IMG/VR virus record: IMGVR_UViG_3300036846_000860
Span: 1 to 50,937 of that record
DNA length: 50,937 nt
Reading direction: 5' to 3' (one strand)
From: a virus
Lineage: Duplodnaviria; Caudoviricetes
Part shown: one piece after another, positions 6,064 through 22,864 of the stretch
Position numbering within the stretch: position 1 is the stretch's first letter
Layout of the letters: each line of letters begins with the position of its first letter
Notes under the pieces: model-generated
Databases searched by the model: none
Told to the model about the DNA's origin: nothing
The model's input: the letters and a program-made list of their open reading frames with translations, nothing else
Position numbers and translations under genes: made by a program

Positions 6064-7208
6064 ACTCTATTAACCTTCTCACCCTTATCCTCAAGCTCGG
6101 GGTAAAACCCAATCATGTTTAGTGCGCCAGCGTTAGCTGCACGACTAACTTGAAGAAAGATCATCTCTCCCGAGATCTGTAAATCAGCAGCAGCTGAGTA
6201 CTCCCCCGACCCCATTGTAACATCCCCGATCGTGATCGTACTCTGTACGAAGTCAACAATCTTATTGCCGAGTGGGTCGTATCGAATTGAGCTCGCGGTG
6301 AATGTTATTGTACACACCCCGATGTTTTCATACAACACCCATACCCTCCTCAACACCTTCTCATACCCCAACGAGTTCCAGATTGGGTTGTTGAATTGGA
6401 GGTTGCTGGCGAGTTCCGAGTTGAAGTTTGTTGGATCGACAAGGTACGTTTGGGAAGGGGAGCCCTCAAACCCTAACAAAAAATTACGCGTAGTGTTCTG
6501 TAACGCGTTATCCTCAACAAACAAAATCCCAATCACCGCTGCGGGAATTACAATACTAAACGGTCCAGCGATGTTGGTGGTGATCGTAACCGTTCCATTA
6601 TCAGGACCGGATACACTCGGGGTGACCTGAAAGCTGAGGGTGGTATTCGCTCCATTCGCTAGCGTGATTGGGAAAGTGGGAGCACCCCCACTAAACGCGT
6701 AGTCGGGATTGGAGAAGGCCGCTCCCGTTAACTGGATTGAAACGCCCGTGTGGTTGGTAATTACGACGTTTAAAGGACCGTTAACGGTGTTAATCACCGT
6801 CGGAACAAAGTTCAACGCAGCGGGAACTACCGTAATGTTGGTGGTAATTCCGTTTGCTTTTAATGAGCTACTCGGACTATTAAAATTACTATGCGCTTGT
6901 ACAATACCGGTAAGTGGTCCTGCCCCGGGAGCAGTACATACAACCTGGAATGTTACCTGCGAACCGTTGGAGGGTAGTGAGTGGGGGAAGGAGGGTAAAC
7001 CCGAAAGTGAAAACCCAGCCCCCGAAATAGTCACAAGCGTTAACGAACACGGTGAGCTTGTGTTAGTGTGGTAGGTAACGGTTACGTCAAGAGTTGTTGG
7101 AGTACCGGTAGGAATATTACCGAAATCAACAGTCGACGGGAATAGCTGTATGTCAGAAAAAGTTGGTGGCCGTCCACCATTTCCATCAGGTAATACGCCG
7201 CCAGGCAT
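6060..7208 (-). CDS. Tail protein with two Ig-like (ASH/choice-of-anchor D type) domains plus a C-terminal nozzle-like segment
   Basis: Two repeats, VDFGNIPTGTPTTLDVTV...FQVVCT and LNFVPTVINTVNGPLNVVITN...FQVTP, followed by a YEKVLRRVWVLYE...GEMIFLQV segment. Confidence 0.55.
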   Translation of the reverse strand: MPGGVLPDGNGGRPPTFSDIQLFPSTVDFGNIPTGTPTTLDVTVTYHTNTSSPCSLTLVTISGAGFSLSGLPSFPHSLPSNGSQVTFQVVCTAPGAGPLTGIVQAHSNFNSPSSSLKANGITTNITVVPAALNFVPTVINTVNGPLNVVITNHTGVSIQLTGAAFSNPDYAFSGGAPTFPITLANGANTTLSFQVTPSVSGPDNGTVTITTNIAGPFSIVIPAAVIGILFVEDNALQNTTRNFLLGFEGSPSQTYLVDPTNFNSELASNLQFNNPIWNSLGYEKVLRRVWVLYENIGVCTITFTASSIRYDPLGNKIVDFVQSTITIGDVTMGSGEYSAAADLQISGEMIFLQVSRAANAGALNMIGFYPELEDKGEKVNRV

Positions 7209-8374
7209 TATGCCACCGCCACATTCCCGATACAGCGCAACGCGCCATACGGGAGTTGTTCGTTAATCCAAGTGTTGTCGTCGAAGTGATAGATCCACAC
7301 TGACGTAGTTGTATCATTGTTCTGCGGGATTGCCAACCAGTAGGTTAGATAATCGATGTAGTTACCAAACGTCCCAACCATCTGCCCGAATGGTTGACTC
7401 GACTGCGCTGCGAGGTCTTTGAAGATTGAACGTCGAGCGTTGGTACCGATCGGTTGAGGAGCGGATCCCGTAAACATATAAACGTTGTCAGCAGAAACAA
7501 AACACGCCAACGCTCCGTAGGATGAAAGCGTGAATGGGATGCTACACCCAACTCCAACTGGACCGACTGAATACGATTCGATAAAGAATGGGATTACGTC
7601 GCTCCCCGTCGCCGACATTGGTGTAATACCAGCCTGACGGAAAATAAACCCGGTTTGGTTGATTGTCACAAACCCGGAGATTTGATCTTCAACCTCTGGG
7701 ATTGTCAATACCCCAGCGGTCTCATCCACCGAACTATCCCACTCGAACGGGTTGTTAACAGCGCACCAGCGTACGCGAGAAGGGTATGGAGTTGATCCTG
7801 CGACGCCTGGATAAGGTTCAACTGTATAAAGAGCGAGGAGGCGGCTTGCGAGTTTACCCAAGAAAAAACACGCTCCCGGGAAATCCCCAATCGGGTTGAG
7901 ATCGGGTATTGGAGGAGTGAACATCGGTCCAACCGGATATGCGCGACCATCTCCTTTATGCATCGTCAACGGGATATACCCGTTACTGAAGAATGCTTGG
8001 TTTTGGTAAATCTGGTATGAGAATAAGTTAGATCCATCATACACCGGATATGCATCATTCCAGAACGCGTTCGGGGAAAGGATTGGTGTCGGAGGACTTA
8101 CCTCCTTAATCCCACGTTTCGTCAACAAGATCGTATGCCAGTTCGCTTGCTGGTCGAGGTATGTAATAGGCTGCATCAACACCTCGTTAAACGAAAGCAT
8201 TGGCGCCCAGGGAGGCCACAACGAGTTCTGGGGTGCGGCGACGATCCGGTTGTCACGTAACAAAAAGTTCGTGATCTTCTTGAACGAGTTCGCCGGCGCG
8301 AAGAGAGAAGGCATATAGTCATTCCATCCTCCCCACGGCGGTATCATATTTGGATCGCGTCGATACATTATCAC
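7208..8374 (-). CDS. Tail nozzle/DNA stabilization protein (P22 gp10-like beta-propeller)
   Basis: N-terminal PPWGGWND, RVRWCAVNNPFEW, GVGC..PF, YMFTG..PQPIG, WIYHFDDNTW: pattern of podovirus nozzle proteins; lies after the adaptor. Confidence 0.65.
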   Translation of the reverse strand: MIMYRRDPNMIPPWGGWNDYMPSLFAPANSFKKITNFLLRDNRIVAAPQNSLWPPWAPMLSFNEVLMQPITYLDQQANWHTILLTKRGIKEVSPPTPILSPNAFWNDAYPVYDGSNLFSYQIYQNQAFFSNGYIPLTMHKGDGRAYPVGPMFTPPIPDLNPIGDFPGACFFLGKLASRLLALYTVEPYPGVAGSTPYPSRVRWCAVNNPFEWDSSVDETAGVLTIPEVEDQISGFVTINQTGFIFRQAGITPMSATGSDVIPFFIESYSVGPVGVGCSIPFTLSSYGALACFVSADNVYMFTGSAPQPIGTNARRSIFKDLAAQSSQPFGQMVGTFGNYIDYLTYWLAIPQNNDTTTSVWIYHFDDNTWINEQLPYGALRCIGNVAVA

Positions 8375-9159
8375 CCCACGTTGGTGTAAGAACGTTTCGG
8401 TTGACGAGGTTGGATGTTGTAATCCATATTCCCCGACATTACCTGCCTGCGTGTTAATACTTGTGCGATTAACCCCGGGACCTGTTTACCGGTTTGCGGC
8501 ATTGTGAATCCGAACAGTAACTGTTGAATTGATTGCGCCTTCTCAGGTTCACCTAACGCGATATGCCCACGCATCATCGCGCCGTAGTCGATGATCTCCA
8601 ACCAGTCGTCACCAACCAACAATACGCTCGCGCCGATATCAGCAGCGCCTTGGTTGGTGTAAGGAGGTGTAACACTATCCTGACCAATCGTCTGTTGAGG
8701 TTTGAGGAAGTAGTCAAGTATGTAAGTATATACCGTTGTATCAGCGTAAGGACGTACGAATATATTTTGCCCAAACATCGCTGTGATTGCAGGAGGACCA
8801 ACCGCGGCGAGAGGATTAGTAACCGGGATTGTTGCTTGGCTAGCTGGGTAGCGACGTAGGTAATCAATGTTTTTCCAACTCGTCTTAATCGCGGTTCCGT
8901 TGGGGTAGTAGAACTTAATCGAGTCAATCCCGCGAGTTTGAGGAGGCCAGGAGATACTCTCCATCCCAGTCTGCCACTGACCCGTCACCGTCTCCTGCGC
9001 ATCGTCGAAGTCGTACGTCATCCCGATGTTTAAATACGACGCCCAGATCCAGTTGTCGATACGGGAGGGAGCTCCTGCCGTTCCCAATGCGGAGATGTCA
9101 GCTCGATTACCCAACTCGAGTAAAACGTTCTGCCGTCGGTTTGCAAGTATGTCTGTCAA
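8371..9159 (-). CDS. Head-tail adaptor protein (putative)
   Basis: N-terminal helix VLLELG...IDNWIWASY, then GPPAITA, FVRPYAD, EIIDYGA; adaptor-like layout directly upstream of the nozzle. Confidence 0.6.
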   Translation of the reverse strand: MTDILANRRQNVLLELGNRADISALGTAGAPSRIDNWIWASYLNIGMTYDFDDAQETVTGQWQTGMESISWPPQTRGIDSIKFYYPNGTAIKTSWKNIDYLRRYPASQATIPVTNPLAAVGPPAITAMFGQNIFVRPYADTTVYTYILDYFLKPQQTIGQDSVTPPYTNQGAADIGASVLLVGDDWLEIIDYGAMMRGHIALGEPEKAQSIQQLLFGFTMPQTGKQVPGLIAQVLTRRQVMSGNMDYNIQPRQPKRSYTNVG

Positions 9160-9398
9160 AACGTTAACTCCTCTGGGTCGATGAATACCTCAGGTTTGTC
9201 AGTACGACCTTCCTGATCGTCGGATAGAATCTCCGAGATGGTTTGTTGACGGTAGTAATTCGAGAGATCATCCCAACATCCATGACATCGACACAACTTC
9301 AACCCGAGCTGCATCGACAACATACTTATAGGGTGAGGGAAGCCACACCTATCGCAGAAGTCCCATTCCTGTCTCCAAACACCTTGCCAGCGTGGCAT
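9156..9398 (-). CDS. Small Zn-finger protein (CDRC...C.CHGC)
   Basis: CDRCGF and CRCHGCWD motifs; AGGGGAG SD. Confidence 0.7.
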   Translation of the reverse strand: MPRWQGVWRQEWDFCDRCGFPHPISMLSMQLGLKLCRCHGCWDDLSNYYRQQTISEILSDDQEGRTDKPEVFIDPEELTF

Positions 9399-9408
9399 AA
9401 AATCTCCC

Positions 9409-11373
9409 CTACCACTTAGGAGTACATTCCATATAGTAAAACGAAAAACCAGAAGCCGTGTTGGTGTTCTTATTATCTGTCACTACAAATAAATCTCCAA
9501 ACGCCTCTCGTTGATTTGCTGGAGTGGGGTTTGGAAGATTGGACGAAATTGTAGCTACCAAGTTCCCATCAATTAAAAAGGCAATAGCAGTCCCAGCGAA
9601 GTTGGGAACAAACTCAAACAAGTGCGGGTTGGTATCCGCAGTGACACCGGTATCAACCACGTTTGATATCCCCGCTGCCTGAATCGTTACAGCCTTAAAA
9701 GTCGTATCTGTTCCGTCGGAGTACCTGAAACCCACGGTCGTCGAATTCGGGGTGTCTGTAGCGTACTTCGTCGTTCCAAGAATTGCCGTCCCGTTCGTTC
9801 CGTTAGCGCTGGCATTCGTCCAGTTCCCAAGCCCGAACCAGTATCGGCTGTTGGTCAGGGTATTCAACTTCACTAAAAAACTCGTCCTGGCGATCGCTAA
9901 GAATGGGAAGTTTACGCTGCTGTTCCCGTCTTGCCCTAAAACAATTCCAAAGGCATCAACACTAGCAGTTGCATTGTTACTGTATGATCTACCTGCTGCG
10001 CGTGTTTGAGTTGGAGGAACTTCGGCTACAACCATCCCAGCGGATGTGGCTAATCCACTAGCTATACCGACGGAGGCTGGACCTCCACCATAAACTGCGT
10101 AAGCAGCTCCGAATCCGTTGGTATAGCGCGACGCCGCCCAGTGATTGTCGCCTTTGATGTTGTAACGAAGTATGTCTCCGTACTCAGCCGTTCCATTGAT
10201 ATTGCTTATCGGGCTACAATCAGATCCAGTACCGCTGAGCAGCCCGGCGTTGTTGACTCTCAAGCATTGGTTCCCGCTTCCAGCAGAGCCTGACAGGGTG
10301 AGCGTAGTTCCCAGGATATCTTTGAACTCTGACGTCCCAGCTTCGACTTTGATTGCTCGCTGAACAGAGCCCCGCAACGGGGTCATGTCCTCGATGTGTA
10401 TTCCGTAAACCTTCGCAGGCTGCACGTTCGGCACGTTGACGCCTGGGGTGATGTGTATTCCGTCTAATTCGCCAGTGATGACCGAATCAACTCCAGCATC
10501 GAGTAGCGTATGAATCGACGACATCTCAACTACTGTCGTGGTTATGCCGTTCAGGCCAGCTAAAGCATCAAAACTTCCACCGTAAAGGGTTTCAACCGTC
10601 GTTGGACTAGTGTTGTGGATAGAACCCGTAAACTTAGCAGCTACTCCGTCGAGAACACCGGTGTCAGCGAGATCCGAAGTGATGTTCGCTGCGACAGGAC
10701 CTCCTGTGATCATCAGAGACTCGTTCGTGGTGAGCCAATTGAAGTTATCGTCACCACCGAAAGTCCCCGCATTATTAAACTGAACATCTGAATTGTTTCC
10801 GCCTGGAGTTCCACCGCCGCCTATTGGACCTCCATTAACGCAGTTGGTGTAAACACATGCATATTTATGTTGAGGGTCTCCAACCGTCCATACACTGTCT
10901 GTTGCCGGGATAACAGACATCGTAACGAGCGGATTACCGTTAACGACTGTCCCTACAACCTGGCTTTGGGGAGAGACAAATTCAAAGCTTGAGATCGGTT
11001 GTGGGTTAACCGCTGACTTAATTAAGACGTTGTTGTACGTACGCGAGACTTTGTTATTGGGTGCGATCGTTACCTTGTACAACGTATTGCTCGGAATGAT
11101 TAAATCATTCGGCCAGACAACGCAGGTGTTAGATGAACCTGACGGATAAAGTGTTGGTTGACCCGAAGCGTTAATCGCGCACTTAGATGAAAGCGCCACC
11201 ACCGTACTGGGAGGGATATTGTAGTTAAACCCTTGATTAGTTGGCACAAGGTCGAACTGGATATACCCACTCGTCGCAACGTTATTGGACGTGTCGGTGA
11301 TAGTTCCCGTAATCACAACGGGCGTTTGCGCCGCGCACGATAACGTTAACAACATCCAAAGTAAGTGTTTCAT
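9409..11373 (-). CDS. Tail fibre-like protein with N-terminal signal peptide (654 aa)
   Basis: MKHLLWMLLTLSCAA|Q; N-terminal GTITD...WPND.IIP.NTLY domain; fibre motif GGGGTPGGNNSDVQFNNAGTFGG; lectin-like C-terminus. Confidence 0.65.
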   Translation of the reverse strand: MKHLLWMLLTLSCAAQTPVVITGTITDTSNNVATSGYIQFDLVPTNQGFNYNIPPSTVVALSSKCAINASGQPTLYPSGSSNTCVVWPNDLIIPSNTLYKVTIAPNNKVSRTYNNVLIKSAVNPQPISSFEFVSPQSQVVGTVVNGNPLVTMSVIPATDSVWTVGDPQHKYACVYTNCVNGGPIGGGGTPGGNNSDVQFNNAGTFGGDDNFNWLTTNESLMITGGPVAANITSDLADTGVLDGVAAKFTGSIHNTSPTTVETLYGGSFDALAGLNGITTTVVEMSSIHTLLDAGVDSVITGELDGIHITPGVNVPNVQPAKVYGIHIEDMTPLRGSVQRAIKVEAGTSEFKDILGTTLTLSGSAGSGNQCLRVNNAGLLSGTGSDCSPISNINGTAEYGDILRYNIKGDNHWAASRYTNGFGAAYAVYGGGPASVGIASGLATSAGMVVAEVPPTQTRAAGRSYSNNATASVDAFGIVLGQDGNSSVNFPFLAIARTSFLVKLNTLTNSRYWFGLGNWTNASANGTNGTAILGTTKYATDTPNSTTVGFRYSDGTDTTFKAVTIQAAGISNVVDTGVTADTNPHLFEFVPNFAGTAIAFLIDGNLVATISSNLPNPTPANQREAFGDLFVVTDNKNTNTASGFSFYYMECTPKW

Positions 11374-14300
11374 TTTATCACCGCGTGTCGTATAACAACC
11401 GGACCGAATACCTGTGGGTTATTACTCTGCACATCCGGGAACGGCCCCGTCCCACAAGCTGTTGGACAGACATAAAGTGTTGACGTTTGTGCTTGATCAA
11501 ACAACGCGAAGTTCGCTCCCATGTCAGTGCCATCATCAGCCTGAAACGCTCCACCCGCAGCGTACTGGCTAGTCTGTCCGTTACAGGCAGCTTCCCCATG
11601 ACACAACGCGTAATCATGCCAGTTAGGCAACGCGTAGTTGAATGAAGATGTTGTTATATTACCCCGCACACCCAAACAATTTTCGGTTGCAGGGTTATTT
11701 GTTGTACAGTTAGGTGTTGACGTTCCCCACAACGTTTGAGGAACAATCGCTGCGTGGGTGGTTGTATACTCAGTATAACAAGCTGCAATCCCACCAGCTC
11801 CCGCAGCGTGACCCGAACAAGTAACGGCGGTGTCGCGACCCGGAATGGCGTTGTGATGATACGCCTCAGTCAGCTCATCCATCTCACAGCTTGTCGTTCT
11901 CGTACCTTCACCAACCGGAGGAGCGTTAGCACCACCGAAGGTTGAGATTGTATTAATCCAAGTAAACGCTGTTGTTAACGTACATGCGTGGGTACCAGCG
12001 AGTGCTGGTGAGCTGGGGTCTGCTGCTTGACCCGCCGTAAACCCATAGTCACTATTATGAGCTCCAAACCAGTGATCGGGAGACCCCTGTAGGTTGTTGA
12101 CGGTACACGTGACGGGAGTGCTTTGGTCTGTGCCTGGGTTAGCGTATGTTACAGTCAGCGCTGTTGGATCCACGCCAGGTAAAACCGGAGGACCTAACAC
12201 TTTCGAGTTGAACGCTGGTGTTGAGTTAAACGTCGTGTCACTACAGTTGTATACCAAAATTGGATCGCCCGCGTGGAATCGAGACTGTCCGTTTGCGTTA
12301 GCGTCGGAACCTGTCAACACCGCGGTGGCCACTCCGTTCAACCTTGTCACGGACGCTGGCCAGTTCGTACCAGAGTTGTCAGCCGCCATCCGGGTTGTAA
12401 ATATAGCTGCCAAGTTGCATTGAGGAGTGGTAGCGTCGATGTTATATTGAAGGTTGTTGACGAAGTGATAATTAGCTACAATATCAGATACTCCGCCTCC
12501 AGCGCCTACTCCGTTGTTGGAACGGAACCCTTGTGAGGTACCCGAACAATCGTTACGGATGATGTTGTTCGTAATCGTGTTATTCATCTGGGTGGTCCAA
12601 TAATTTATACCCCCACCCACGGCGCTTGTTTGATTCGCCTTACTCGAGATTACCTGTCCCTGCCCTCCGCTGAAGTCGCCATTCTCAAGGATGTCACCAT
12701 CGATAACAATACGGTTGTTGAACTTACCCTCATGAGCGTTTTTACGAACGTAACCGTTTAATGAATAACCCGTTCCAGCTTGTACGCTGACGGAAGTGAT
12801 AACACCCGCAGAAACCGTATTGACAGCAATGTTACCTCCCGACCCACCCGCTTGCGTTACCGTCAAAACATTCGATGCTGTGTAGGTACCACTCGTACCA
12901 CCACTCCCTAATGTGATGCCCGTGATACCACCAGCTGGACTCACACTCGTGATATTGATAGTTGCTCCAACCCCAGTTCCAGTGTTAACTGTCGTTGCAA
13001 GTCCGTTTTGAACGTGGTAACCCGTCCCAGATACAACAGTTATCCCTGTGACAGAGTTACCCGCTCCAAGGCTCGTTACCAACACAGTACCACCAACACC
13101 ACCAGCATCGTAAGGGCTTGATAACGTCAATACATCGTTTAACGCATACCCCGATCCGTTATTCATCGGAGAGACGGTAACAATCCCTTGTTGGTTAGGA
13201 GCGCCGTTGGTTGTTTGTAAATGGACTGTTGCACCCGTGCTGCCGCCCGTCCCACCCGTTGTCGGGTAAACACTATTCGGGTCAAAGCCAGCTGCCTGCG
13301 CTAACACCCATGAGTAAGGGTAACTAAACCTGTTACCTCGATCCTCCATATCCGACCCGACATCAAAGTTCGGGATTGAAACGTTAGCAGCAAACCCACC
13401 CGTCATTGTTGTTTCGGTCTCACCCTCAAACCAGTTATGAACCTGTTTAATTTGTTTACCGTATAGAATCGAGACAACCTGCCCTTCATTACCAGGTCGC
13501 CACATTTGATCGCCGTACATATATGAGTCAGAACACTGCACGCAGTTATAATCGATACCATGGGGAATGACGTTGAATCCTGTACCACCGCCAACCGCTA
13601 CACCAGCAACGACCGGTGCGTCCTGTGCATCACCGTGGATGTAGGTATACGCAACATGCATATGGTGAGCGAGTTCACTTTCCAACGTCTCACTTTCCTG
13701 ACCGAACTTAATGATTGCTTGGTTGCTCGTATCTCCCGGTGACGGGTGAATGTTCGCGTTCAGTATAGCGTAATGATGGGGGCCTATAAAATTAGAATCC
13801 CACATCGCGGTTAAGATTTGGTTATTACCCCCATTAAGCTCCCACATTGACGCCACGTCGTTGTACGCGCTCGTGTTTGTGTTTACCCCGTTCGCTAATG
13901 TGAACGCTCCACTCACTGGGGTTACAACCGTACCTAACTGGTATGACATTTGTGTAGCGTTACAACCAACGTTACGGATACCAGGTTGGGTTGATTGTGG
14001 AACGTTATCTTGTATCCCATGCGAGCAGACTGTACGCCCCAGCGGGAGGGGAGCTGTACTAGTTAGGATAATGAAGTTGGTTGAGTTATCATTCACTGTC
14101 TGTGGGAGTGTAAGACCTGTCAACCCCGGTGCGGTAAATACGTGACCCGCTGGAATAAAGATTGTCGTTCCTGTACCGTTACTAGTTCTGCAAGTTTCAG
14201 CATCGTTGATTGCTTGTTGTAAACTCGTCCACGAATCGGCGGTGTACGCTGGAAAGGTGGTTGCTCCACACGTCCATCCTCCTCCCGTACCAACCGACGG

Positions 14301-17093
14301 GAAGTTAATTACATTAACTGTCGTTCCCACATACTCCAACGAGTTAACCCAGATTTGGGGGAGCTGGGTGATGTCAGGAGGGAAGGCGGTGAAGTTAACT
14401 CCGGTGACATTGCCACTCGCTACGATAACGGCGATACTACGCGGTTTAAACGTCCATACCACCCCGGTAGGGATGATTGTGTAATTACCGTTACCTAAGC
14501 TTGGGATTGTGTAATTACCGGATGCGTTTGCGACAACCGAGCCTGTAGCCGTTCCGCTGTATGTAACGGTCGCGTTAGCGCCTTGTGACCCCAACGCTCC
14601 CGAGATTGAAAACGTAGCTGCTGCTACGGATTGATACGCACCAAAATCAGGTAACGCTGGACGGGTCACTCCATCTTTATCAAGTGGAGCTACCGTGTTA
14701 ACGTTTGTTGTGGAAGCATGATGTGCGGTTAGGTGGTAATCATGCGCTGCTTGGTTTGCGACAAAGGCAGCGTTGAAGGCGAGGTTAGTACCTACATTAT
14801 AACCGAAATTGTTCGTGACCGTAGGCGTGGAGCCGCTAGCAACGTTCAGGAAGCGGGCTGCGGTGACGTCAGCTGTGTTTTGGTAGATCAGGCGTGTGTC
14901 ACTATTATCAGTGTAGAAGGCGAAGCCCAGCGAGGCGAGATTGGGCCCATAGATGATGTTGTTATAGACAGTTGCCTGGTGCTGTAAGCGGATGGCTGAG
15001 TTGACCGCAGTGCATGAAGGCGTCAGATTGCAGGTAGAACCCGGGCCAGTGTTCGAGATTACGTTATTGGTGACGAAGTCGTTGGCTGTGTTAGTGGGCG
15101 TGGACGACTTGAGCATGATGGCTGAGTCTACGAACTGGTTGTTACCCAGCGAGTTGTGATCGCAGACGTTGCTATCTATGACCGTGTTGTTCGTGAAGTC
15201 CTTCACGTTCACGCACTCGGTTTGAGTGTTCGTAATCGTGTTGCCCTGGAGGGTGACGTGATTGGTTGTGTCCGTGTTATCGCCCGAGGTGCCGAGGTAG
15301 AAACCATCACCGTTCGTTGTCGTATCCAAGCCACAGTTATTGATAGTGGAGTTGGACCATGTAACGTTGCTGGGGACGGCGCCTGAGCAGAATGCAGACG
15401 TACATTTCTTGATATAGTTGCAAGCCCCCTGTGCATCATGGATATTCATATTAGAGAACGTGATATTCGAGCCGCCTTCGACCTGCGTCTCCTCCTCCGC
15501 ACCACTAATCTCTAATCCGCTGATGTCCATAAACTGAATGTTTTGTAGACGAAACCCAGACCCAGTAGTAACACCTGTAATGTGAGGATTATCACCAGGG
15601 AATTTTGTAATTACAGTATGAGCTCCGCTAGTACCTGAAGGACCTTGAACGAGTAAGAACCCACTGGTCATTGGATACGTTCCGGTTCTCATCTGGACCG
15701 TATCACCACTCGCCATACGTGTTAATGCGAATGACAATGTACAAAACGGAGCTGCTAACGTACCCGCCTGCCCCGCTGTATCTGCGCAGTTTGGCCCACT
15801 CCCACCAGGAGCGTTTGAGTTGTTTACGATATAGGTTACATTACCAGCTACAGCATAACCAGATGCACCGACGACCGCGTAGTTACAGGTACCGGATAAC
15901 CCCGTTGCTGGATTAGGGCAAGCCGCAGGACTGTAACTATACGTTACAGGACAACCTGCAGTTACATCAGCAGCTGACTCACAACGTAAGAGTGATGTAG
16001 GAAATGTCTTCGCGGGTGTTGTAACAATACCATCACACTTACTACCTGGGTTCGAACAAACAAGCGCTGCTGAACCAACCTGTACAAGTGTGGTGCCCTG
16101 AACCAAAGCCGTAAAGCCGGGGTTATTCCAAGCATACAACGGATTCCACTTTGTTGGATCCGACGTGCTTGTACCCGTACTAGCTGCAGGTTCGATACCC
16201 TGTGATAACATCGCTTGGATAGGCCAAGTACCGGAAGGACAATCATCTGTGAGGATAATGTTTTGTCCACTAACCGTCGTATCGTTTCCAAAAATAATTC
16301 CAGAACCGCCTCTGATTTTAATCGGTACGGTATTACCGTTCGGGTGAGTATGATGGTTGTTATAAAACTCAAACCAACGGGCACCGTTTTCTCCCGTACA
16401 AGTTCCAGGAGAACTACCGTGGGTTTCTACACCAGCATTGATAAAGTCGTTGAAACGTGCAACAAACCTACCACCGTAGTATGTTTGAAAGAAGGCGTAG
16501 TTTGAAGTTGTAGTACCCGTTATCGTGTTCCCTTCGATATAGACGAGGTTTAAACCGCCGGGAGTAACATCGTTAGTACGACCGGTCATGTCACTCGGCC
16601 CGCCACCTCCATTAATCGTAATCTCTTCCGCGAGGGCGGTAGCGTCGGTTAGTGTGTTGTGGTAGATTACCCCACCACCAAACCCGTTTGTTTGGATACA
16701 AGCATCACAACCGTTGAACGTGTTATCGTGGACAAGCCAAGTTTGTCCTGTTGGAGAGAACCGAACGGTTACCTTACCGTTGGCTGTACCGTTAAACGTG
16801 AAGTTCTCAATCTCGAGATGCGTACTAGCTGTTGCTGTGGTTGTTGCGTTAATGATGTTTGAACCCGACGAAGTAACGATACATCCACGACCGTTTAGAA
16901 TAATATTCTTCGTGAACGTAATGTTTGTAGACCATGTAACCGTTCCGGGGCTAGCTGGTCCTTGTACTGTATCACCATCAGCTGAAGCTGTAATCTGCGT
17001 GTTGAAATCGGCAGCAGCACAGGTGGCTGCAGTCCGAACAGTAGCGTGTGCTACTCCGACGAGTACTAGAAGTGCTAAGATGAGTTTGCGCAT
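11370..17093 (-). CDS. Giant multi-beta-helix (pectin lyase-like) depolymerase/adhesin with signal peptide (about 1907 aa)
   Basis: Likely true start is ATG 17093 (TAATG overlap): MRKLILALLVLVGVAHA|T. Three Asn-ladder beta-helix regions, a PDFGAYQ motif, a carboxypeptidase-regulatory-like Ig domain and GSGY/GTGY repeats. Confidence 0.7.
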   Translation of the reverse strand: MRKLILALLVLVGVAHATVRTAATCAAADFNTQITASADGDTVQGPASPGTVTWSTNITFTKNIILNGRGCIVTSSGSNIINATTTATASTHLEIENFTFNGTANGKVTVRFSPTGQTWLVHDNTFNGCDACIQTNGFGGGVIYHNTLTDATALAEEITINGGGGPSDMTGRTNDVTPGGLNLVYIEGNTITGTTTSNYAFFQTYYGGRFVARFNDFINAGVETHGSSPGTCTGENGARWFEFYNNHHTHPNGNTVPIKIRGGSGIIFGNDTTVSGQNIILTDDCPSGTWPIQAMLSQGIEPAASTGTSTSDPTKWNPLYAWNNPGFTALVQGTTLVQVGSAALVCSNPGSKCDGIVTTPAKTFPTSLLRCESAADVTAGCPVTYSYSPAACPNPATGLSGTCNYAVVGASGYAVAGNVTYIVNNSNAPGGSGPNCADTAGQAGTLAAPFCTLSFALTRMASGDTVQMRTGTYPMTSGFLLVQGPSGTSGAHTVITKFPGDNPHITGVTTGSGFRLQNIQFMDISGLEISGAEEETQVEGGSNITFSNMNIHDAQGACNYIKKCTSAFCSGAVPSNVTWSNSTINNCGLDTTTNGDGFYLGTSGDNTDTTNHVTLQGNTITNTQTECVNVKDFTNNTVIDSNVCDHNSLGNNQFVDSAIMLKSSTPTNTANDFVTNNVISNTGPGSTCNLTPSCTAVNSAIRLQHQATVYNNIIYGPNLASLGFAFYTDNSDTRLIYQNTADVTAARFLNVASGSTPTVTNNFGYNVGTNLAFNAAFVANQAAHDYHLTAHHASTTNVNTVAPLDKDGVTRPALPDFGAYQSVAAATFSISGALGSQGANATVTYSGTATGSVVANASGNYTIPSLGNGNYTIIPTGVVWTFKPRSIAVIVASGNVTGVNFTAFPPDITQLPQIWVNSLEYVGTTVNVINFPSVGTGGGWTCGATTFPAYTADSWTSLQQAINDAETCRTSNGTGTTIFIPAGHVFTAPGLTGLTLPQTVNDNSTNFIILTSTAPLPLGRTVCSHGIQDNVPQSTQPGIRNVGCNATQMSYQLGTVVTPVSGAFTLANGVNTNTSAYNDVASMWELNGGNNQILTAMWDSNFIGPHHYAILNANIHPSPGDTSNQAIIKFGQESETLESELAHHMHVAYTYIHGDAQDAPVVAGVAVGGGTGFNVIPHGIDYNCVQCSDSYMYGDQMWRPGNEGQVVSILYGKQIKQVHNWFEGETETTMTGGFAANVSIPNFDVGSDMEDRGNRFSYPYSWVLAQAAGFDPNSVYPTTGGTGGSTGATVHLQTTNGAPNQQGIVTVSPMNNGSGYALNDVLTLSSPYDAGGVGGTVLVTSLGAGNSVTGITVVSGTGYHVQNGLATTVNTGTGVGATINITSVSPAGGITGITLGSGGTSGTYTASNVLTVTQAGGSGGNIAVNTVSAGVITSVSVQAGTGYSLNGYVRKNAHEGKFNNRIVIDGDILENGDFSGGQGQVISSKANQTSAVGGGINYWTTQMNNTITNNIIRNDCSGTSQGFRSNNGVGAGGGVSDIVANYHFVNNLQYNIDATTPQCNLAAIFTTRMAADNSGTNWPASVTRLNGVATAVLTGSDANANGQSRFHAGDPILVYNCSDTTFNSTPAFNSKVLGPPVLPGVDPTALTVTYANPGTDQSTPVTCTVNNLQGSPDHWFGAHNSDYGFTAGQAADPSSPALAGTHACTLTTAFTWINTISTFGGANAPPVGEGTRTTSCEMDELTEAYHHNAIPGRDTAVTCSGHAAGAGGIAACYTEYTTTHAAIVPQTLWGTSTPNCTTNNPATENCLGVRGNITTSSFNYALPNWHDYALCHGEAACNGQTSQYAAGGAFQADDGTDMGANFALFDQAQTSTLYVCPTACGTGPFPDVQSNNPQVFGPVVIRHAVIK

Positions 17094-17806
17094 TAGTTTG
17101 TGCTCATCGCGACTGACATTGACACCCAACTTGAACCAGCTGCTGTGTTACGACCTACCGACGGTGTGTATGTAGCAGCTCCAACGTTAATCTGATAAAC
17201 CTCAGCGCTCACCTGACCGCCTGCGCTTTGATTACCCAACGTCCACGAACCGCTGGCTGTTAATGTTTCAACTGTAACCTGTTGGGCTAACTCTCCAAAC
17301 ACGACGTAAGCTGCACCTGGGACGACTACTGACACGCCCACTACAGGGTTGGCGTCACTTACAGCTGCTGACGTTCCGTGAACGAAATTAGCTGTGTTCC
17401 AACCGTTGGTTGAGCTGAATGCGTAGTAGGTTACGCGACAACTGGGGGTGCAGTTAGTTCCACCAAACACTGGTGTAGCAGAACTGGCTATACACCATAA
17501 GCCTGTATTCTGGGCTGATGTACCACCACTACCTGTAGTCGCTCCGGTAAATGTTCCGCTTGCACTACAACCTGAAGTAACCGAAAGAGTTGAGGTTGGA
17601 CTAACGGCGTTATTGGATGAAGTAACAATCAACAGATTGCCAACGGCTTGACCGGTGGGAGAGATACCTGGGCCTCCAGATGCGCCTGCGGTGACCCACG
17701 CGATCGTGCCTGTGCCTCCTCCGCCACCCGCGCCCTTATTACGCATGGGAGTTATATACTGACCCATCAGAGGTATAAGCAACAACAATGTAGTTAGTAG
17801 TTTCAT
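17093..17806 (-). CDS. Beta-rich protein with signal peptide (237 aa)
   Basis: MKLLTTLLLLIPLMG|Q; GNLLIV...SGSWT repeated beta pattern; 4 Cys. Confidence 0.65.
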   Translation of the reverse strand: MKLLTTLLLLIPLMGQYITPMRNKGAGGGGGTGTIAWVTAGASGGPGISPTGQAVGNLLIVTSSNNAVSPTSTLSVTSGCSASGTFTGATTGSGGTSAQNTGLWCIASSATPVFGGTNCTPSCRVTYYAFSSTNGWNTANFVHGTSAAVSDANPVVGVSVVVPGAAYVVFGELAQQVTVETLTASGSWTLGNQSAGGQVSAEVYQINVGAATYTPSVGRNTAAGSSWVSMSVAMSTN

Positions 17807-20800
17807 TAGTTTGCTTGAACCGTGATTAATCTCGGGACGGTTAACGTTATCTGAGCTACGTTGACAGTAGCGGTTGCAGTACCGTTTCCACTTGTTACCT
17901 TCAGAACCACCGTCGATCCAGCTACACAGTTGTTGCCGCTGGTGAGGTTAGCGAACTGTCCAGTCTCCGACCACATACGGTTCGCGACCGCCATTGTCTT
18001 ACCGGTGGAGGTAGTTTCAGCCACAAACGCGGGATCGTCACTTACCGACCCGTCAGATTTAGTACATGCGGTTGAGATCGTCCACTTTATCGTACCGGTG
18101 GTGTTGGTTCCTGAACCGTAAACGATGTTCCAGTACGGTTGGGTTGCTGTATCCCAATCGAATGGGAGTTGGAAGACGAATTGAGAGTTGGTGGTTGTGT
18201 TGTTGTTAGCCCATTGCAACACACCGCCGAGGTTGTTAGTACCTGCACGACAAGCTATAGTTGGAGCGTTTGTCGCTGGGATAGACCATCCCGCTCCAGC
18301 GGTTGCGTTGTTGCAGTTGGCTGCGGGTACGATTAAGTGTTCCGGGAAGTCGACGTAAGTGATTGCTCTACTCGCGCCTCCTGCTACCGCGACTTGGTTA
18401 GCAGCGGTGGCTGCTAGCGTTGCAGTGTTGACGTTCCCTATCAGCGTTCCCGAATCAGCAATCTGCCCGGCGGTGCCAGAAAAACTAACAATCCTACCAC
18501 TCGTTACGCTTGACGGTCCTGTTGGGATCGCTGCACCTGCACCCGCGATTACTTTCCCGCTCAACTGAGTTGCGTTGATATTACCGGTACCGATCGCGCT
18601 TAACAAACCGGTTGTATCTACTCTAACACCGTTTGCGGTACCTAAAGCAGTGACTTGGAGTGGGTTTAACGTACTTGCCGCTAACGTGTTAATGTTAACC
18701 AAGAACGGAGTACCGGTTGAGGTGGAAGCAGCTGACTCAGTAAACGTGTTAGCTGACGCGCTAGCTGTTGTCAACTGGTTCTGCCACGTCATCGTGAAGT
18801 TACCGTTAACAAACGTTTTGCTGACAGCCAAGTTGTTGATTTGGTCGAGGGTGGCGGAACTACCACTACACGCTCCCCACGTCATCGGACTAGTGCCGCC
18901 ACCTGCGGACGTTAAACACTGTCCTGCTGATCCCGCGGTTGTCGGAAGGTTGAAGTTGTAAGTGCCAGCAGCTGACTGTGGTTGGATTGTGATCGTGCCG
19001 CTACCACCTCCAGCAAGTCCGAGTGTACCGGTTCCTATTGTTGAAGAACCGATTGTGGGAGTTCCAGAAAAGTTTGCCGCGTTAGAGGTGACGCCGGTTA
19101 AAAGCGTACCGGTAGCACCCACCGAAATTTGAGCGAGAGAAGAAGTACCGTTTCCTACCACCAACCCGTTAGTTGTAAATGAAGAGTTACCAGTTCCACC
19201 GTTGGGTACTGATGTGGTACCAGTTACATCTCCACCCGCTGCAAGATTAACAGGACCAATCGTTAACTGTGAGATGTGAGTGGAAGCAGCTCCTACATGC
19301 ATAATACCCGCTGTACCGTTCTCACCCGTTGGAGGTTGCCAAGCATAGTTTGTGATGCTAGCAGCGTTGGGGGCGATTAAGTTAAACGCGCTAGTTACGA
19401 GGGTTGGTGAAACCGTTGTTGCGGGGATACCGATTAAGTTACCCCCGCCAGTTCCAGTGATTGTTAAGCTGTTAGCGCTGAGGTTACCGGACGAGTCGGT
19501 GGTTAGTCCGGAGTTAGAGGTGATTGCCGACGCGCCAGAAGCGTATGTAACTTGGTTGGCGACTAGCGCCGCTCCCGTGATACTACCAGTAGTACATGCT
19601 CCCCATGCTGGGTCTGTACCGTTGGAGGTTAAACATTGGTTGGTTGTACCGACAGCTAACCGCGTATCTCCTGTAGCACCCTGGTAAATCATATCACCAC
19701 GGGTTGTAGTTGGAGAGAGGTTGTTGAAAGCTGCGCTGGCGGTTGTTGCTCCGGTGCCACCTTGTAGAACTGTAACAGCAGCGTTGTCGGTCAGGACGTT
19801 GGCGCTAGCGTTGGGGAACGTGAATGTTTTTGCGCTGGTTGCTGGACCTGCGACGGTAAAGAACGCGTTAGCTGTCCCGCCCTGCGCCGAAGGTAACGGA
19901 GAAGCGAGATGTGTGGCTGTTACTTGATTGGAGGTGTTAATGTCTGTACCGGTTAGCGCGATCGAGCTGTTGACGAAGGCAGACGTTAACGTTGTACAGG
20001 TTGGTGCTGCATCAGCGTTTTCTGCCGTTACTACCTGGTTGGTACATGTTCCATTACCTGCTGGGGATAACGACGACGCGATGAACGCTCCAGCGCCGTT
20101 TGATTTAGGCACACGACCGGATGCTGCTGCTGATAGGTTGGTTCCCGTACCACCTTGTGCTGCCGTCACCAACGCAGCATCCGTTAATACGTTCGCGTTC
20201 GAGTTAGGGAAGGTAAAGGTTTTTACAGACGCAGCTGGTCCTGCCACCGCGAAGAATGCGTTCGCTGTACCGCCTTGAGCTGCCGGGAGGGCAGAAGCTA
20301 AGTGGGTTGCTGTGACTTGATCACTCGTGTTGATATCTACACCGGAAGCAACCACGTTGATAGCTGTATTACTACCATTCTTCATCAACCAACGGGTTGC
20401 TGTAGTGTCATACCACAACCAACCGGAGCCTGCAATTCCCGTCGGAGCGGCTTGTGCGGTACTAACTAACGGGCCTACGGACATTACCAAACCGCCAGTG
20501 TCAGCGATCGTCACCTTCGTTGCGTCGTCGGACACGCTAGAATCACCCAACGTTAACGAAGCTGTGGCTTTGGGGATTTTGTTTGTAGTCATCCCAGCGC
20601 CAGCACCTACCGCACCTGTAGCGCAGTTACCGGGTGCCCAAGTACCGCTTACACCCACAACGCATTGTCCGTCGGTACCATACGCTACGTTACCGTAGGT
20701 GTTTAATCCCGTACCAACGATTAAACCTCCCTTTGCTGTAGCGGGAGCGAGACCGTTGAATAATGCAGCTACACTAGCAGCGTTTATACCTGTTCCACCG

Positions 20801-21627
20801 TTGGCCAAAGGAACTAGCCCGGTAGTGATATCGCTTCCACTTACCACAACGTTTGATGAAAGCGCGTGTCCGTTTACGGTTGTAGTGGTAGGAACCTTCG
20901 TACTGTCGGCTACTGTACAGGTGCTGCTTAATGTACATGTCGTTCCGTTGACGGTAGTTGAGGCGTTTGAGGCTGCAAGACCGGATACTAACACACCTGA
21001 GTCTTTGATGATATTGCCGGTTGTTCCATTGAATAAAACGATATCACTGTTGACTGAAGTACCTGGACCGGTTACAGTTCCTGTTCCTGCGGTGCAACCT
21101 TTCGCGGCGCCTGTTTTATCAATACCTGTCGGCACCTGACCTGCGGTACAGTTTGTTGGATCAACTGCCAATACCTTAATATCAGCGTTACCGTTGCCGA
21201 TTACTAACGAGCCGACGGTTAAAGTACCAGCTGTGTTTGTTACTGTTCCTGATCCACCACCTGGAACTGATGGGTAACCGCTATATGTTACGGTAACAGA
21301 CCCGCCACCAGTCAACACCGTCATGTTCAAACGGATAAAGTTCGCGCTTGTAGTAGCTGTCGTAGACCCGTTTGTTGAACAGTTTTGGCTAGCAATCAAA
21401 CCAGCAGACGTGTAGGTAATACCGTCAGTTGAGCTGTCGACCTGAATCGCGCAGGTTGTTACAGTTCCAGACTTCACCCAATTGAGAGTGTGATACAACG
21501 AAGTACCTAATTCACGGATAGGTGGGGCTGTCCCCGTCGCATTGAAGGTGAAGACTTGGTGAGCGTTAAACTGAGCGAAGCACGATCCGACAAATAAGAA
21601 GAGGGGTAGTAATTTTCTCAGCCTCAT
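17806..21627 (-). CDS. Long tail fibre-like protein with signal peptide (1273 aa)
   Basis: MRLRKLLPLFLFVGSCFA|Q; fibre repeats LPxxQGGT, GPGTSVNSDIVLFNGTTGNIIKDSG, RGDMIY..RLAVGT; 18 Cys in consecutive pairs. Confidence 0.75.
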   Translation of the reverse strand: MRLRKLLPLFLFVGSCFAQFNAHQVFTFNATGTAPPIRELGTSLYHTLNWVKSGTVTTCAIQVDSSTDGITYTSAGLIASQNCSTNGSTTATTSANFIRLNMTVLTGGGSVTVTYSGYPSVPGGGSGTVTNTAGTLTVGSLVIGNGNADIKVLAVDPTNCTAGQVPTGIDKTGAAKGCTAGTGTVTGPGTSVNSDIVLFNGTTGNIIKDSGVLVSGLAASNASTTVNGTTCTLSSTCTVADSTKVPTTTTVNGHALSSNVVVSGSDITTGLVPLANGGTGINAASVAALFNGLAPATAKGGLIVGTGLNTYGNVAYGTDGQCVVGVSGTWAPGNCATGAVGAGAGMTTNKIPKATASLTLGDSSVSDDATKVTIADTGGLVMSVGPLVSTAQAAPTGIAGSGWLWYDTTATRWLMKNGSNTAINVVASGVDINTSDQVTATHLASALPAAQGGTANAFFAVAGPAASVKTFTFPNSNANVLTDAALVTAAQGGTGTNLSAAASGRVPKSNGAGAFIASSLSPAGNGTCTNQVVTAENADAAPTCTTLTSAFVNSSIALTGTDINTSNQVTATHLASPLPSAQGGTANAFFTVAGPATSAKTFTFPNASANVLTDNAAVTVLQGGTGATTASAAFNNLSPTTTRGDMIYQGATGDTRLAVGTTNQCLTSNGTDPAWGACTTGSITGAALVANQVTYASGASAITSNSGLTTDSSGNLSANSLTITGTGGGNLIGIPATTVSPTLVTSAFNLIAPNAASITNYAWQPPTGENGTAGIMHVGAASTHISQLTIGPVNLAAGGDVTGTTSVPNGGTGNSSFTTNGLVVGNGTSSLAQISVGATGTLLTGVTSNAANFSGTPTIGSSTIGTGTLGLAGGGSGTITIQPQSAAGTYNFNLPTTAGSAGQCLTSAGGGTSPMTWGACSGSSATLDQINNLAVSKTFVNGNFTMTWQNQLTTASASANTFTESAASTSTGTPFLVNINTLAASTLNPLQVTALGTANGVRVDTTGLLSAIGTGNINATQLSGKVIAGAGAAIPTGPSSVTSGRIVSFSGTAGQIADSGTLIGNVNTATLAATAANQVAVAGGASRAITYVDFPEHLIVPAANCNNATAGAGWSIPATNAPTIACRAGTNNLGGVLQWANNNTTTNSQFVFQLPFDWDTATQPYWNIVYGSGTNTTGTIKWTISTACTKSDGSVSDDPAFVAETTSTGKTMAVANRMWSETGQFANLTSGNNCVAGSTVVLKVTSGNGTATATVNVAQITLTVPRLITVQAN

Positions 21628-21896
21628 TTGAAGTACACCCGCAGTCTACCGGATGTCAACACGGTACATGCAAATCCATAAAGCCACTCGCAGGTGAAGC
21701 TCTCGACGAGGGAGATATCTCCCTTACCGGTTGCAGACCAAACGATCTTACCGAACCGGTCCTGCACCTGTACTTGATCACCCTGAGATCCGTAATCGGA
21801 CCATTCAAAATGGGCGTTTTTAACGTCGGTAGCGTATAAAATAGCAGAACCTGGGGTGTCAATTACCCAGGGGTTAGAGCCTAGTGAATTAGCCAC
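21624..21896 (-). CDS. Small virion-associated protein (90 aa)
   Basis: GGAGG SD, GTG start, first gene after the capsid terminator, ATGA overlap with the fibre gene. Confidence 0.65.
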   Translation of the reverse strand: MANSLGSNPWVIDTPGSAILYATDVKNAHFEWSDYGSQGDQVQVQDRFGKIVWSATGKGDISLVESFTCEWLYGFACTVLTSGRLRVYFK

Positions 21897-21905
21897 AATC
21901 CCTCC

Positions 21906-21940: not shown

Positions 21941-21959
21941 TAATCCCAGAACAATGCCC

Positions 21960-22853
21960 TTATTGTCCTGGGCTCCCGGCAACTCCATGCCAATACGTAA
22001 CTCCCGGAACAAACCTAAAGTACACGCTGTAGGATGCACCCTTTGTGAAGAAGTCATCCTGAGAGTCGAATTCCGGCATGATACGCCAGAAGTACTTCAA
22101 TGTTTGATCGGTCTTACGAGCTGCGATCCACCAAGCGGTGGTTGAGGAGAAGAAGTGGTTGATGCGTGGCAATAACCTACCCTGCATCACGTTCACTTCG
22201 TTGTTGCCTGTGTAAGGTTTGTAAGCGGAGTGTAAGATCTCTCCCGCTTTAAACTGCAGGTCGACCGGCAGCCAAACCTCCTCAGGCATCATCCGTTTGA
22301 GCAACCCACGCTCGTTCACCATCTTTTCGAACAAGATGATAAGCTCCTGCATACCTGTCACGCTGAACGCGACGTTGGTTGCAGATTGGTTGCTGTAGGT
22401 ACCACCACCTAGTAATGGGTGGGCTGTATTGATGAAGCTAACTCCGTCAATCGTGTTTTGGGTGGTGAAGGAGTTGTTAAGGACCGCGGCCGCACCCGAC
22501 TCGATGGTCTGACGGATACTACCACCAAAGTCTTGCGAAACCTTCTTCATCACACCATATTGGTCGTCATCCCACATCTCACGCGTGACTTGAAAACCAA
22601 GTCCGTACGAGACTGGTTGGTAACGAAGTGACCCACCCTGGATGGGTTGATCCAGCTTGATTACCTCGCCCTCAGGCTTAGTCGGTACTTGAGCAAGCCC
22701 GGCGATTAATTGGTCTTCTTCATACGCCTTTGTCGTACTGTAAACGTTGAAGAACTCCGGAAACTCCTCCGGATGCATAGCAAGGTCTTCGTAGATAACC
22801 GAGAAGAGCCCTGCCGCCAATAACTGTCCAAACTGTCCACGTGTGACTGGCAT
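21960..22853 (-). CDS. Major capsid protein (HK97 fold, Mu gpT-like family)
   Basis: KAYEE, KPEGE, YGLGFQVTREMWDDDQY, DGVSFINTAHPL and terminal GVAGSPG motifs; AAGGAG SD; downstream of scaffold. Confidence 0.85.
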   Translation of the reverse strand: MPVTRGQFGQLLAAGLFSVIYEDLAMHPEEFPEFFNVYSTTKAYEEDQLIAGLAQVPTKPEGEVIKLDQPIQGGSLRYQPVSYGLGFQVTREMWDDDQYGVMKKVSQDFGGSIRQTIESGAAAVLNNSFTTQNTIDGVSFINTAHPLLGGGTYSNQSATNVAFSVTGMQELIILFEKMVNERGLLKRMMPEEVWLPVDLQFKAGEILHSAYKPYTGNNEVNVMQGRLLPRINHFFSSTTAWWIAARKTDQTLKYFWRIMPEFDSQDDFFTKGASYSVYFRFVPGVTYWHGVAGSPGQ

Positions 22854-22864
22854 GTAAGGTCTCC

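Follow-up and report, generated by a model that had tools for sequence, protein, structure and literature searches.

Four late genes with hydrophobic leaders

The stretch analyzed here, which we call the window, is the virus record IMGVR_UViG_3300036846_000860 of IMG/VR; it has 50,937 nt, with a unit genome of ~50,753 bp, and is a complete podovirus-like soil phage genome. We studied four consecutive minus-strand genes, located between the genes for the major capsid protein and the tail adaptor, whose products (P0001 to P0004) each start with a short, basic and hydrophobic leader. The sequence evidence supports the view that these leaders are real and lie at the true starts of the genes, that they have a canonical signal peptidase I design and that this design is conserved in a large protein family. 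The genes and leaders are as follows (↓ marks the predicted cleavage site).

17806..21627, minus strand: P0001, 1273 aa, fibre-like, with a leader; leader-bearing relatives at the related loci L004 and L005
17093..17806, minus strand: P0002, 237 aa, Gly/Ser/Thr-rich, with a leader; no relatives among the related loci
11370..17093, minus strand: P0003, 1907 aa, multidomain beta-helix protein (depolymerase-like), with a leader; precomputed PF22842 match
9409..11373, minus strand: P0004, 654 aa, putative tail fibre with a leader, a conserved N-terminal docking domain, a variable middle and a widespread C-terminal domain
21574..21627, minus strand: leader of P0001, MRLRKLLPLFLFVGSCFA↓Q, 18 aa
17762..17806, minus strand: leader of P0002, MKLLTTLLLLIPLMG↓Q, 15 aa
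17043..17093, minus strand: leader of P0003, MRKLILALLVLVGVAHA↓T, 17 aa; true start ATG 17093, not TTG 17129
11329..11373, minus strand: leader of P0004, MKHLLWMLLTLSCAA↓Q, 15 aa; predicted helix at residues 2-14

The start/stop overlaps are ATGA (at 21627 and 11373) and TAATG (at 17806 and 17093), and together the four genes take up 12,219 nt, i.e., 24% of the 50,753-bp unit genome. These coordinates and junctions match the preliminary description of this DNA, made from the letters alone, which had reported four translationally coupled genes of 12.2 kb. Their placement between the capsid and adaptor genes, claimed in the same description, also holds, except that two small leaderless genes (90 and 80 aa) share this slot.

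The n-regions (MRLRK, MK, MRK and MK in P0001 to P0004, respectively) are basic and contain no acidic residue, the h-regions are hydrophobic and uncharged, and the leaders in the window are 15-18 aa long. The cleavage motifs CFA↓Q, LMG↓Q, AHA↓T and CAA↓Q, with small neutral residues in positions -3 and -1, follow the signal peptidase I pattern. Leaders were first called in 58 open reading frames (ORFs) as a 10-residue window with a mean Kyte-Doolittle value ≥2.1, starting within the first 10 residues. Six ORFs pass this rule: the four genes, a 51-aa ORF that has no K/R ahead of the window, and a 125-aa holin-like ORF. The combination of a hydrophobic leader with a small-x-small motif followed by Q or T was found only in the four genes; the leaders ending in A/G↓Q or AHA↓T are present as first quoted, and no other ORF of the 58 shares their design. 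None of the four leaders contains a twin-arginine (RR, Tat) motif, and no C-terminal sorting domain of type IX secretion (Por_Secre_tail) was detected in any of the four proteins by Pfam at E≤0.01. By blastp, the four proteins have no segment in common.

It should be noted that leaders could arise as an artefact of start-codon choice, if the real starts were located downstream. The public P0001 gene call (P0155, 1172 aa) indeed starts at Met102 and drops both the leader and a conserved N-domain (residues 1-101, 21627-21325); thus, a call placed 101 residues late illustrates that automated annotation can hide the signal. Furthermore, a Shine-Dalgarno sequence is lacking at all four starts, compared to 35 of 59 genes genome-wide that have one (GGAG-type; background 13%). 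However, the lack of this sequence fits translational coupling, and all four ATG codons overlap an upstream stop codon. The longest P0003 ORF begins at TTG 17129, whereas the leader requires ATG 17093, a start backed by a database gene call and by homologues. The public calls of both P0003 and P0004 contain the leader, homologues keep coding sequence from the leader onward, and the conserved domain of P0004 starts at residue 17. We therefore consider an artefact of this kind hardly credible, and downstream starts, raised in the preliminary description as a possible flaw, are not borne out.

The reading frames themselves were examined using natural variants from two soil metagenomes. In P0001-P0003, 23 of 24 substitutions fall in third codon positions (11/11 in P0002 and 11/12 in P0003; variant sites at 14640-14769 and 17369-17456), and thus these frames are real and under purifying selection.

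Conservation of the leaders

Related loci were obtained by a capsid-based scan of IMG/VR (34 loci, capsid identity 56-94%), and a stricter leader rule was applied to all ORFs ≥100 aa in the window and these loci. In the capsid-to-adaptor slot, 47 of 104 ORFs have a leader. Outside the slot 31 of 335 ORFs were flagged; 20 of the 31 are the capsid N-terminus, a false positive in which the conserved hydrophobic segment MPVTRGQFGQLLAAGLFSVIY is followed by the acidic residues ED. A homologue of the P0004 N-domain occurs exactly once in each of the 21 loci that hold any (22 sequences with the window). The leader is present in 21 of these 22 syntenic genes, and Q stands directly ahead of the conserved ...PVTVTG... 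domain start in 19.

The P0004 family was collected with an exhaustive HMMER search, which gave 711 homologues at E≤1e-3; in these, N-domain and C-domain families recombine. Leader statistics were calculated for 151 sequences, the best 150 of the 711 homologues plus the query: a leader is present in 100, and at least 5 of the other 51 are truncated or have atypical leaders. Two criteria were used to call a leader, one of them K/R before the hydrophobic core, so the basic n-region is present in all 100 by construction. Gln terminates the hydrophobic run in 78 of the 100 versus 19% expected. Among these 78, the -1 residue is A in 52, G in 21, S in 4 and P in 1 (A/G/S in 77/78), the -3 residue is A/S/L/C/V/G/T/I in 78/78, and the -2 residue is bulky, mostly F/L/W; the combined h+c run has 11-21 residues (median 14), and Q is located at position 14-24 in 76/78. 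The -3/-1 pattern before Q is that of signal peptidase I cleavage. Pairwise identity is 0.32 for the leaders compared to 0.48 for the domain that follows (n=43), i.e., the leaders drift faster. The survey of relatives proposed at the outset thus favors conserved leaders.

The same statistics bear on the idea that P0001 and P0004 are lipoproteins, cut by signal peptidase II at the Cys of the c-region and displayed on the host envelope. FVGS↓C (P0001) and LTLS↓C (P0004) would fit a permissive lipobox pattern. However, the leader Cys is not conserved, most homologous leaders contain no Cys, and where Cys is present it occupies position -3 of the A/G↓Q site (10/78), so that lipidation of these two proteins appears very improbable.

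The leaders are not confined to the P0004 family. Among relatives of P0001, 18 of 35 carry one, followed by Q in 15 of the 18; the P0001 N-domain (residues 16-135) is 44-48% identical in L004 and L005, both leader-bearing, and residues 447-694 match other phage contigs. A 939-aa relative at L036 has no leader. Six of eight close relatives of P0003 have a clear leader at the start, mostly ending ...A↓T as in P0003 itself; of the other two, P0196 has none and P0194 has a long extension ahead of the hydrophobic stretch. Two unrelated contigs were reached via the P0001 repeat region: L037 (26.5 kb) encodes four consecutive leader-plus-Q fibre-like proteins (1320-5341), and L038 (104 kb) encodes a leader-plus-Q protein of >2280 aa (2167-9006).

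Identity of the four proteins

The following parts of P0004 were delineated.

10969..11325, minus strand: N-domain of P0004, residues 17-135, a predicted beta-sandwich with C65/C84 (AlphaFold2 model and structural matches)
9421..10206, minus strand: C-terminal domain of P0004, residues ~390-651; 99 homologues, recurring on fibre-like proteins with other N-termini

P0004 was modeled using AlphaFold2 on a 19-sequence alignment. The predicted local distance difference test (pLDDT) values have 10-residue block means of 78-96 over residues 21-130 and are <50 across most of residues 137-654; the leader is modeled as a helix (residues 2-14). The best match of the N-domain in the PDB is the neck fibre gp5 of cyanophage A-1(L) (8keg_a, Z 8.8, root-mean-square deviation 3.7, 99 residues aligned), followed by the Bxb1 tail tip (Z 7.6), the Ur-lambda tail tip (Z 7.2) and the XM1 neck (Z 7.0), and by weaker matches (Z ~5-6) to the DEV collar and to the N-termini of the P22 and Sf6 tailspikes (these two Z ~5); according to the tool's own warning, Z scores of 7-9 are common among beta-sandwiches. 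Neighbours in BFVD and the Atlas are tail-fibre proteins and the PF08400 and PF09008 clusters (template modeling score ~0.5 in the Atlas). In the top matches, residue 1-2 of the solved chain aligns with residue 17-18 of the model, which indicates that the mature P0004, rather than its precursor, would equal an ordinary fibre. The case that residues 17-135 fold like the virion-docking N-domains of neck and tail fibres is good but not conclusive. Six homologues share 55-70% identity with this N-domain, and their C-termini are mostly unrelated, i.e., a conserved anchor is combined with swapped distal parts.

For P0003, the precomputed annotation contains PF22842 (pectate-lyase-like, Pel9A-like beta-helix); there is also a weak CarbopepD_reg_2 match, and PF13620 (26.3 bits) is below the cut-off. 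Relatives of P0003 carry PF13229 (Beta_helix) and PF01522 (polysaccharide deacetylase), and together with the beta-helix match this suggests a depolymerase-like protein. Our own Pfam and PHROGs searches returned nothing above threshold for any of the four proteins, PDB sequence searches with P0001, P0003 and P0004 found no match, and a viral-contig scan with P0003 gave no pattern match. A tblastn search of 50,697 isolated phage records yielded no match for P0001 and P0004, and only matches of 6% coverage for P0003. The fibre/depolymerase identity proposed in the preliminary description is supported for P0004 (docking fold) and P0003 (PF22842), whereas P0001 and P0002 have received no assignment. 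The fibre motifs reported for two of the bodies are present; on their label "classic", Pfam and PHROGs are silent.

These assignments have to be weighed against a different possibility, namely that the four proteins are exported but do not belong to the virion, being secreted or periplasmic enzymes or adhesins, while some other, unrecognized protein serves as the virion receptor binder. In such a case, they might degrade capsule or extracellular polysaccharide from within, destroy receptors and so prevent re-adsorption or superinfection, or act as auxiliary carbohydrate-active enzymes. The evidence on the leaders applies equally here; P0003 has a polysaccharide-lyase-like beta-helix, some of its relatives have polysaccharide deacetylase domains, and P0001-P0003 contain no recognized docking domain. 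There are precedents as well: a soil prophage study reports SignalP signal peptides on 5% (3261/64,678) of carbohydrate-active enzymes (PMC13507307), and in a study of Porphyromonas gingivalis prophages the authors take the view that the signal-peptide proteins encoded there modify the host surface (PMC10367356). Conversely, the fold of the P0004 N-domain and its N-terminal placement match those of virion docking domains, and P0004 is a mosaic of conserved N-terminal and variable C-terminal parts that is typical of fibres. Pfam and PHROGs detected no other fibre candidate in the window. The module lies inside the structural operon, with the capsid gene upstream, the adaptor gene two genes downstream and its own genes translationally coupled, and it occupies 24% of a lytic genome. 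We consider a non-virion function unlikely on balance, though less so for P0001-P0003, and it is the alternative that deserves the most attention. A complex prediction for the adaptor, the 388-aa protein and the P0004 N-domain (residues 17-185) scored 0.00, with controls absent, and is evidence neither way.

Cysteines and the compartment of folding

Of 43 homologues of the P0004 N-domain with a leader, 98% have the C65/C84 pair. In the only leaderless clade of this domain (L003:4462-5403, P0085, P0047 and P0051) the N-terminus is polar, C65 is replaced by G/A and C84 by F/L. The joint loss of the Cys pair and the leader, as read from these sequences, fits folding in an oxidising compartment. 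The leaderless N-domains of L003 and P0085 open with CxxC (MSFCGTCD.. and MASFCGSCD..) instead of a leader. Within the P0004 family, the Cys content is 1.84% in leader-bearing and 1.05% in leaderless proteins (Mann-Whitney p=1e-10), and the P0001 family has medians of 1.46% and 0.24%, respectively (p=0.001), although phylogeny and gene calls truncated at the N-terminus confound both comparisons. A higher Cys content in leader-bearing proteins would be expected of a leader that takes them to an oxidising compartment.

A hydrophobic N-terminus does not have to be exported or cleaved; it could be a helix that helps in assembly or oligomerisation, or a tether that keeps the protein at the inner membrane up to the time of assembly or lysis. 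Such a role would agree with the cytoplasmic assembly of tailed-phage virions, with the helix seen for the leader in the AlphaFold2 model and with the existence of leaderless variants of the same domains. It sits poorly with the n-h-c layout, with the length of 14-24 residues and the small residues at -3/-1 in 77/78 leaders followed by Q, all of which are features of cleavage sites rather than of structural helices. Moreover, the sequence of the leader drifts while its physicochemical character is kept, the structural homologues start exactly where the leader ends, and the Cys pair is lost along with the leader. We regard uncleaved leaders as improbable.

A proposed route to the virion

The reading that we favor, and to which we give somewhat more credence than doubt, is that the four proteins are genuine substrates of the Sec translocon and signal peptidase I, and that this fibre and depolymerase module matures in the periplasm and joins the particles at lysis. 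Under this model, a lytic podovirus-like soil phage would encode its receptor-binding module in these four genes, each giving a precursor with a Sec-type signal peptide. The primary tail fibre would be P0004, with the beta-helix protein P0003 as a depolymerase-like component and two additional fibre-like parts, P0001 and P0002. The precursors would pass through the host Sec translocon late in infection, and signal peptidase I would cut after A/G, leaving an N-terminal Gln (in P0003, before T). In a host that follows the Q-rule, the exposed Gln would be cyclised to pyroglutamate. Folding, disulfide formation and oligomerisation would then take place in the periplasm, and the fibreless particles built in the cytoplasm would be met only once holin and endolysin merge the compartments. 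Docking would occur next to the adaptor via the mature N-terminal domain; before lysis, the exported proteins may also act on the envelope. We infer the export, cleavage, pyroglutamate, disulfides, presence in the virion and timing of attachment alike. Fibres and tailspikes have been added in vitro to fibreless particles of T4, P22 and T7, and for this reason late attachment is physically plausible.

Several points weigh against this model, in addition to the commonness of such Z scores and the confounded Cys comparisons. The leader calls come from heuristic rules of our own, and a loose lipobox would also accommodate the leaders of P0001 (VGSC) and P0004 (LSC). P0001-P0003 contribute no recognized docking domain. 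We know of no mechanism that would bring periplasmic fibres to the particles before lysis. The leaderless clade of the N-domain exists, and 37 of 99 homologues of the C-domain have no leader (59 have one, 3 are uncertain), so that export is not needed for these folds; thus, as to the concern that homologues might lack leaders, most of them carry one, and these two groups do not. The leaderless clade probably reflects a single evolutionary event, in which case the link between leader and Cys has been observed only once independently. The arrangement at L003, where the gene next to a leaderless anchor encodes a protein with a leader, sits awkwardly with any model with one compartment. Finally, Cys density was dropped as an argument within the phage, since the portal (1.4%) and terminase (1.8%) are comparable to the four proteins (1.2-2.2%).

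A broader version of the model is a two-compartment morphogenesis, in which heads and tails are built in the cytoplasm while the whole receptor-binding apparatus is exported by Sec, trimmed, capped by pyroglutamate, locked by disulfides and added at lysis. We put this forward tentatively, with rather more doubt than confidence. If true, such a strategy would be widespread in a large group of soil phages that are uncultured, considering the 711 homologues of P0004 (about two thirds of those examined carry leaders) and the same pattern on the unrelated contigs L037 and L038. The exported fibres may also destroy receptors or serve as exclusion factors before lysis.

Relation to known systems and to the host

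The virions of tailed phages are taught as wholly cytoplasmic assemblies. Phage proteins that use the host Sec pathway include signal and signal-anchor-release endolysins, spanins and the filamentous coat proteins pIII/pVIII, and in filamentous phages, exported parts are put together at the membrane. These known cases either act in lysis or belong to extruded virions without tails, whereas the candidates described here are fibres of a tailed phage. Searches of the main texts of open-access papers and bioRxiv preprints yielded no account of tailed-phage fibres with Sec leaders.

The neck fibre gp5 of A-1(L) (8keg), the lambda-type side tail fibre (PF08400; 9e7m), the XM1 neck (7kjk) and the P22/Sf6 tailspike (PF09008) contain the same beta-sandwich of ~100-120 residues, and in these proteins, as in P0004, it forms the extreme N-terminus of a modular fibre. 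However, the chains of the known docking domains start from residue 1-2 and have no leader, whereas P0004 has a 15-residue Sec-type leader and a conserved Cys pair; its sequence identity to these domains is 9-18%, and there is no Pfam match. Tail fibres as such are known; the proposed export route would be the new part, and the observation, made in sequences, is well supported.

The closest parallel among phages may be the P. gingivalis prophages (Nixviridae), for which Matrishin et al. 2023 (PMC10367356) describe five Q-rule signal-peptide proteins of unknown function; as the authors see it, the phages adapt to host secretion, a point also noted in PMC10653852. These are likewise phage proteins with signal peptidase I leaders that expose Gln. 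They are encoded by temperate phages of a Bacteroidota host and are viewed as host-surface modifiers, whereas in the window, a lytic podovirus-like genome, the leaders are on the fibre module, with hundreds of homologues. The carbohydrate-active enzymes of soil prophages resemble the four proteins in being polysaccharide-active phage proteins with Sec signals; in PMC13507307, tail fibres and other structural genes were excluded by design, and here the leader is located on the structural fibre itself.

The preference for Gln at position +1 is of interest with regard to the host. Strong use of Shine-Dalgarno sequences is atypical of Bacteroidota, and the Shine-Dalgarno sequences before 35 of 59 window genes argue against a host from this phylum. 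A weak lead from the Atlas for P0003 (score 0.86) points to Acidobacteriota. On the other side, three of the four window leaders have Gln at +1 after the signal peptidase I site, with A/G↓Q sites, as do 78 of the 100 leader-bearing homologues; this resembles the Bacteroidetes Q-rule, for which Bochtler et al. 2018 (PMC5837995) give a species mean of 71% Gln at +1. For Ignavibacterium album the value is 77%, and Acidobacteria were outside the analysis (PMC5837995; see also PMC10653852). No prophage or host relative was found in two scans of genome contigs (by capsid alignment and by P0004 N-domain alignment), and the window contains no tRNA genes. The Q-rule pattern and the strong Shine-Dalgarno use pull in opposite directions, and we do not choose between them. 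If the host is not a member of Bacteroidota, the Q-rule extends further than described, and the +1 Gln signature could hint at the host range of uncultured soil phages.

A conserved secretion signal on fibres would have one of two meanings: either a virion part matures in the periplasm, or exported proteins whose purpose is unknown take up a quarter of a lytic genome. In the former case, the host signal peptidase, the disulfide machinery and perhaps glutaminyl cyclase would be assembly factors of the phage. Recombinant receptor-binding proteins and depolymerases of this type would need periplasmic or oxidising expression.

Genome setting

The window has a 184-bp terminal direct repeat (1-184 and 50754-50937) with one mismatch, at repeat position 128. 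The record is labeled "linear", yet the genome of ~50,753 bp is closed; a 1451-aa gene for a Cys-free protein crosses the genome junction (3367..1 / 50753..49765, minus strand). The late operon on the minus strand has the order small and large terminase, portal, major capsid protein, the four leader genes, a 262-aa protein, a 388-aa protein and several Cys-free proteins (150, 473 and 1451 aa) that occupy, by position only, the place of T7-like internal virion proteins. The large terminase (terL) has ≤32% identity to that of any phage isolate, and podoviruses are the closest relatives with a name. The sequence is present in two soil metagenomes from two studies, and no RNA data were found among the sequencing runs that hold it. 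In a Pfam search of 61 window ORFs (E≤0.001), no integrase, Dsb protein or signal peptidase was detected. A promoter and terminator scan of 9000-23500 gave sites no more numerous than in shuffled sequences. The neighbours of the module are the following.

21960..22853, minus strand: 297-aa major capsid protein, bounds the slot upstream (phrog_371 1e-14, PF25209 1.3e-13); no signal peptide
21624..21896, minus strand: conserved 90-aa protein, no leader; its stop overlaps the P0001 start (ATGA), Shine-Dalgarno AGGAGG upstream
9156..9398, minus strand: conserved 80-aa zinc-ribbon-like protein (CDRCGF...), no leader; downstream boundary of the variable module
8371..9159, minus strand: predicted tail adaptor, 262 aa, no leader and no Cys (AlphaFold2 pLDDT 77; Foldseek PDB matches)
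7208..8374, minus strand: virion structural protein, 388 aa (phrog_3287 3e-14), nozzle-like by position only

The best Foldseek match of the 262-aa protein in the PDB is from cyanophage A4 (9k09_d, E 4e-9, TM 0.54/0.64), with further matches to VP1, SU10, Pa223, crAss001, DEV, N4 and T7 gp11 (7box_N); on this structural evidence, the modeled protein is a podovirus tail adaptor similar to T7 gp11. PDB sequence searches with profiles of the adaptor and the 388-aa protein found no match. The capsid and adaptor genes flanking the module are leaderless, as first described; the "nozzle" named along with them is identified by its position and by the phrog_3287 annotation "virion structural protein" only. 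Homologues of the 90-aa protein (MANQLA.NPW...) are found immediately upstream of leader genes in related loci.

The capsid-to-adaptor slot of some related loci contains other genes. Small transmembrane (holin-like) proteins are encoded in it at L014:7939-8220, L015:6752-7033 and L016:16693-16956, and a spanin-like lipoprotein with the lipobox LAGC at L025:8383-8988, so the slot looks like a fibre-plus-lysis module. L029 (7352-10784) and L030, in which the capsid is 66% identical, have no P0004-type fibre and instead carry in the slot a leaderless 310-aa protein (..NFPYGLSSFGIPL..); they also encode a 312-aa CxxxCxxC protein and a 232-aa protein. In the window itself, genes of 86 and 125 aa with hydrophobic N-terminal segments follow a 434-aa ATP-grasp protein (47556-48190 and 48187-49491, both on the minus strand) and are possibly lysis genes; the 125-aa holin-like ORF has a weak RsaA_NTD match. 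Nowhere in the genome was an endolysin recognized.

The plus strand encodes QueC (36745-37539), QueD/PTPS (39082-39438), a radical-SAM QueE-like protein (40184-40918) and GTP cyclohydrolase I (FolE, 41597-42199); this 7-deazaguanine pathway cluster at 36745-42199 suggests modified DNA bases. A DUF3987 primase/helicase-like protein, a family-A DNA polymerase with an N-terminal domain of the uracil-DNA-glycosylase superfamily (UDG-like; 42183-44693) and a phage-encoded Cpn10 (GroES-like) co-chaperonin (47246-47638) are encoded on the same strand.

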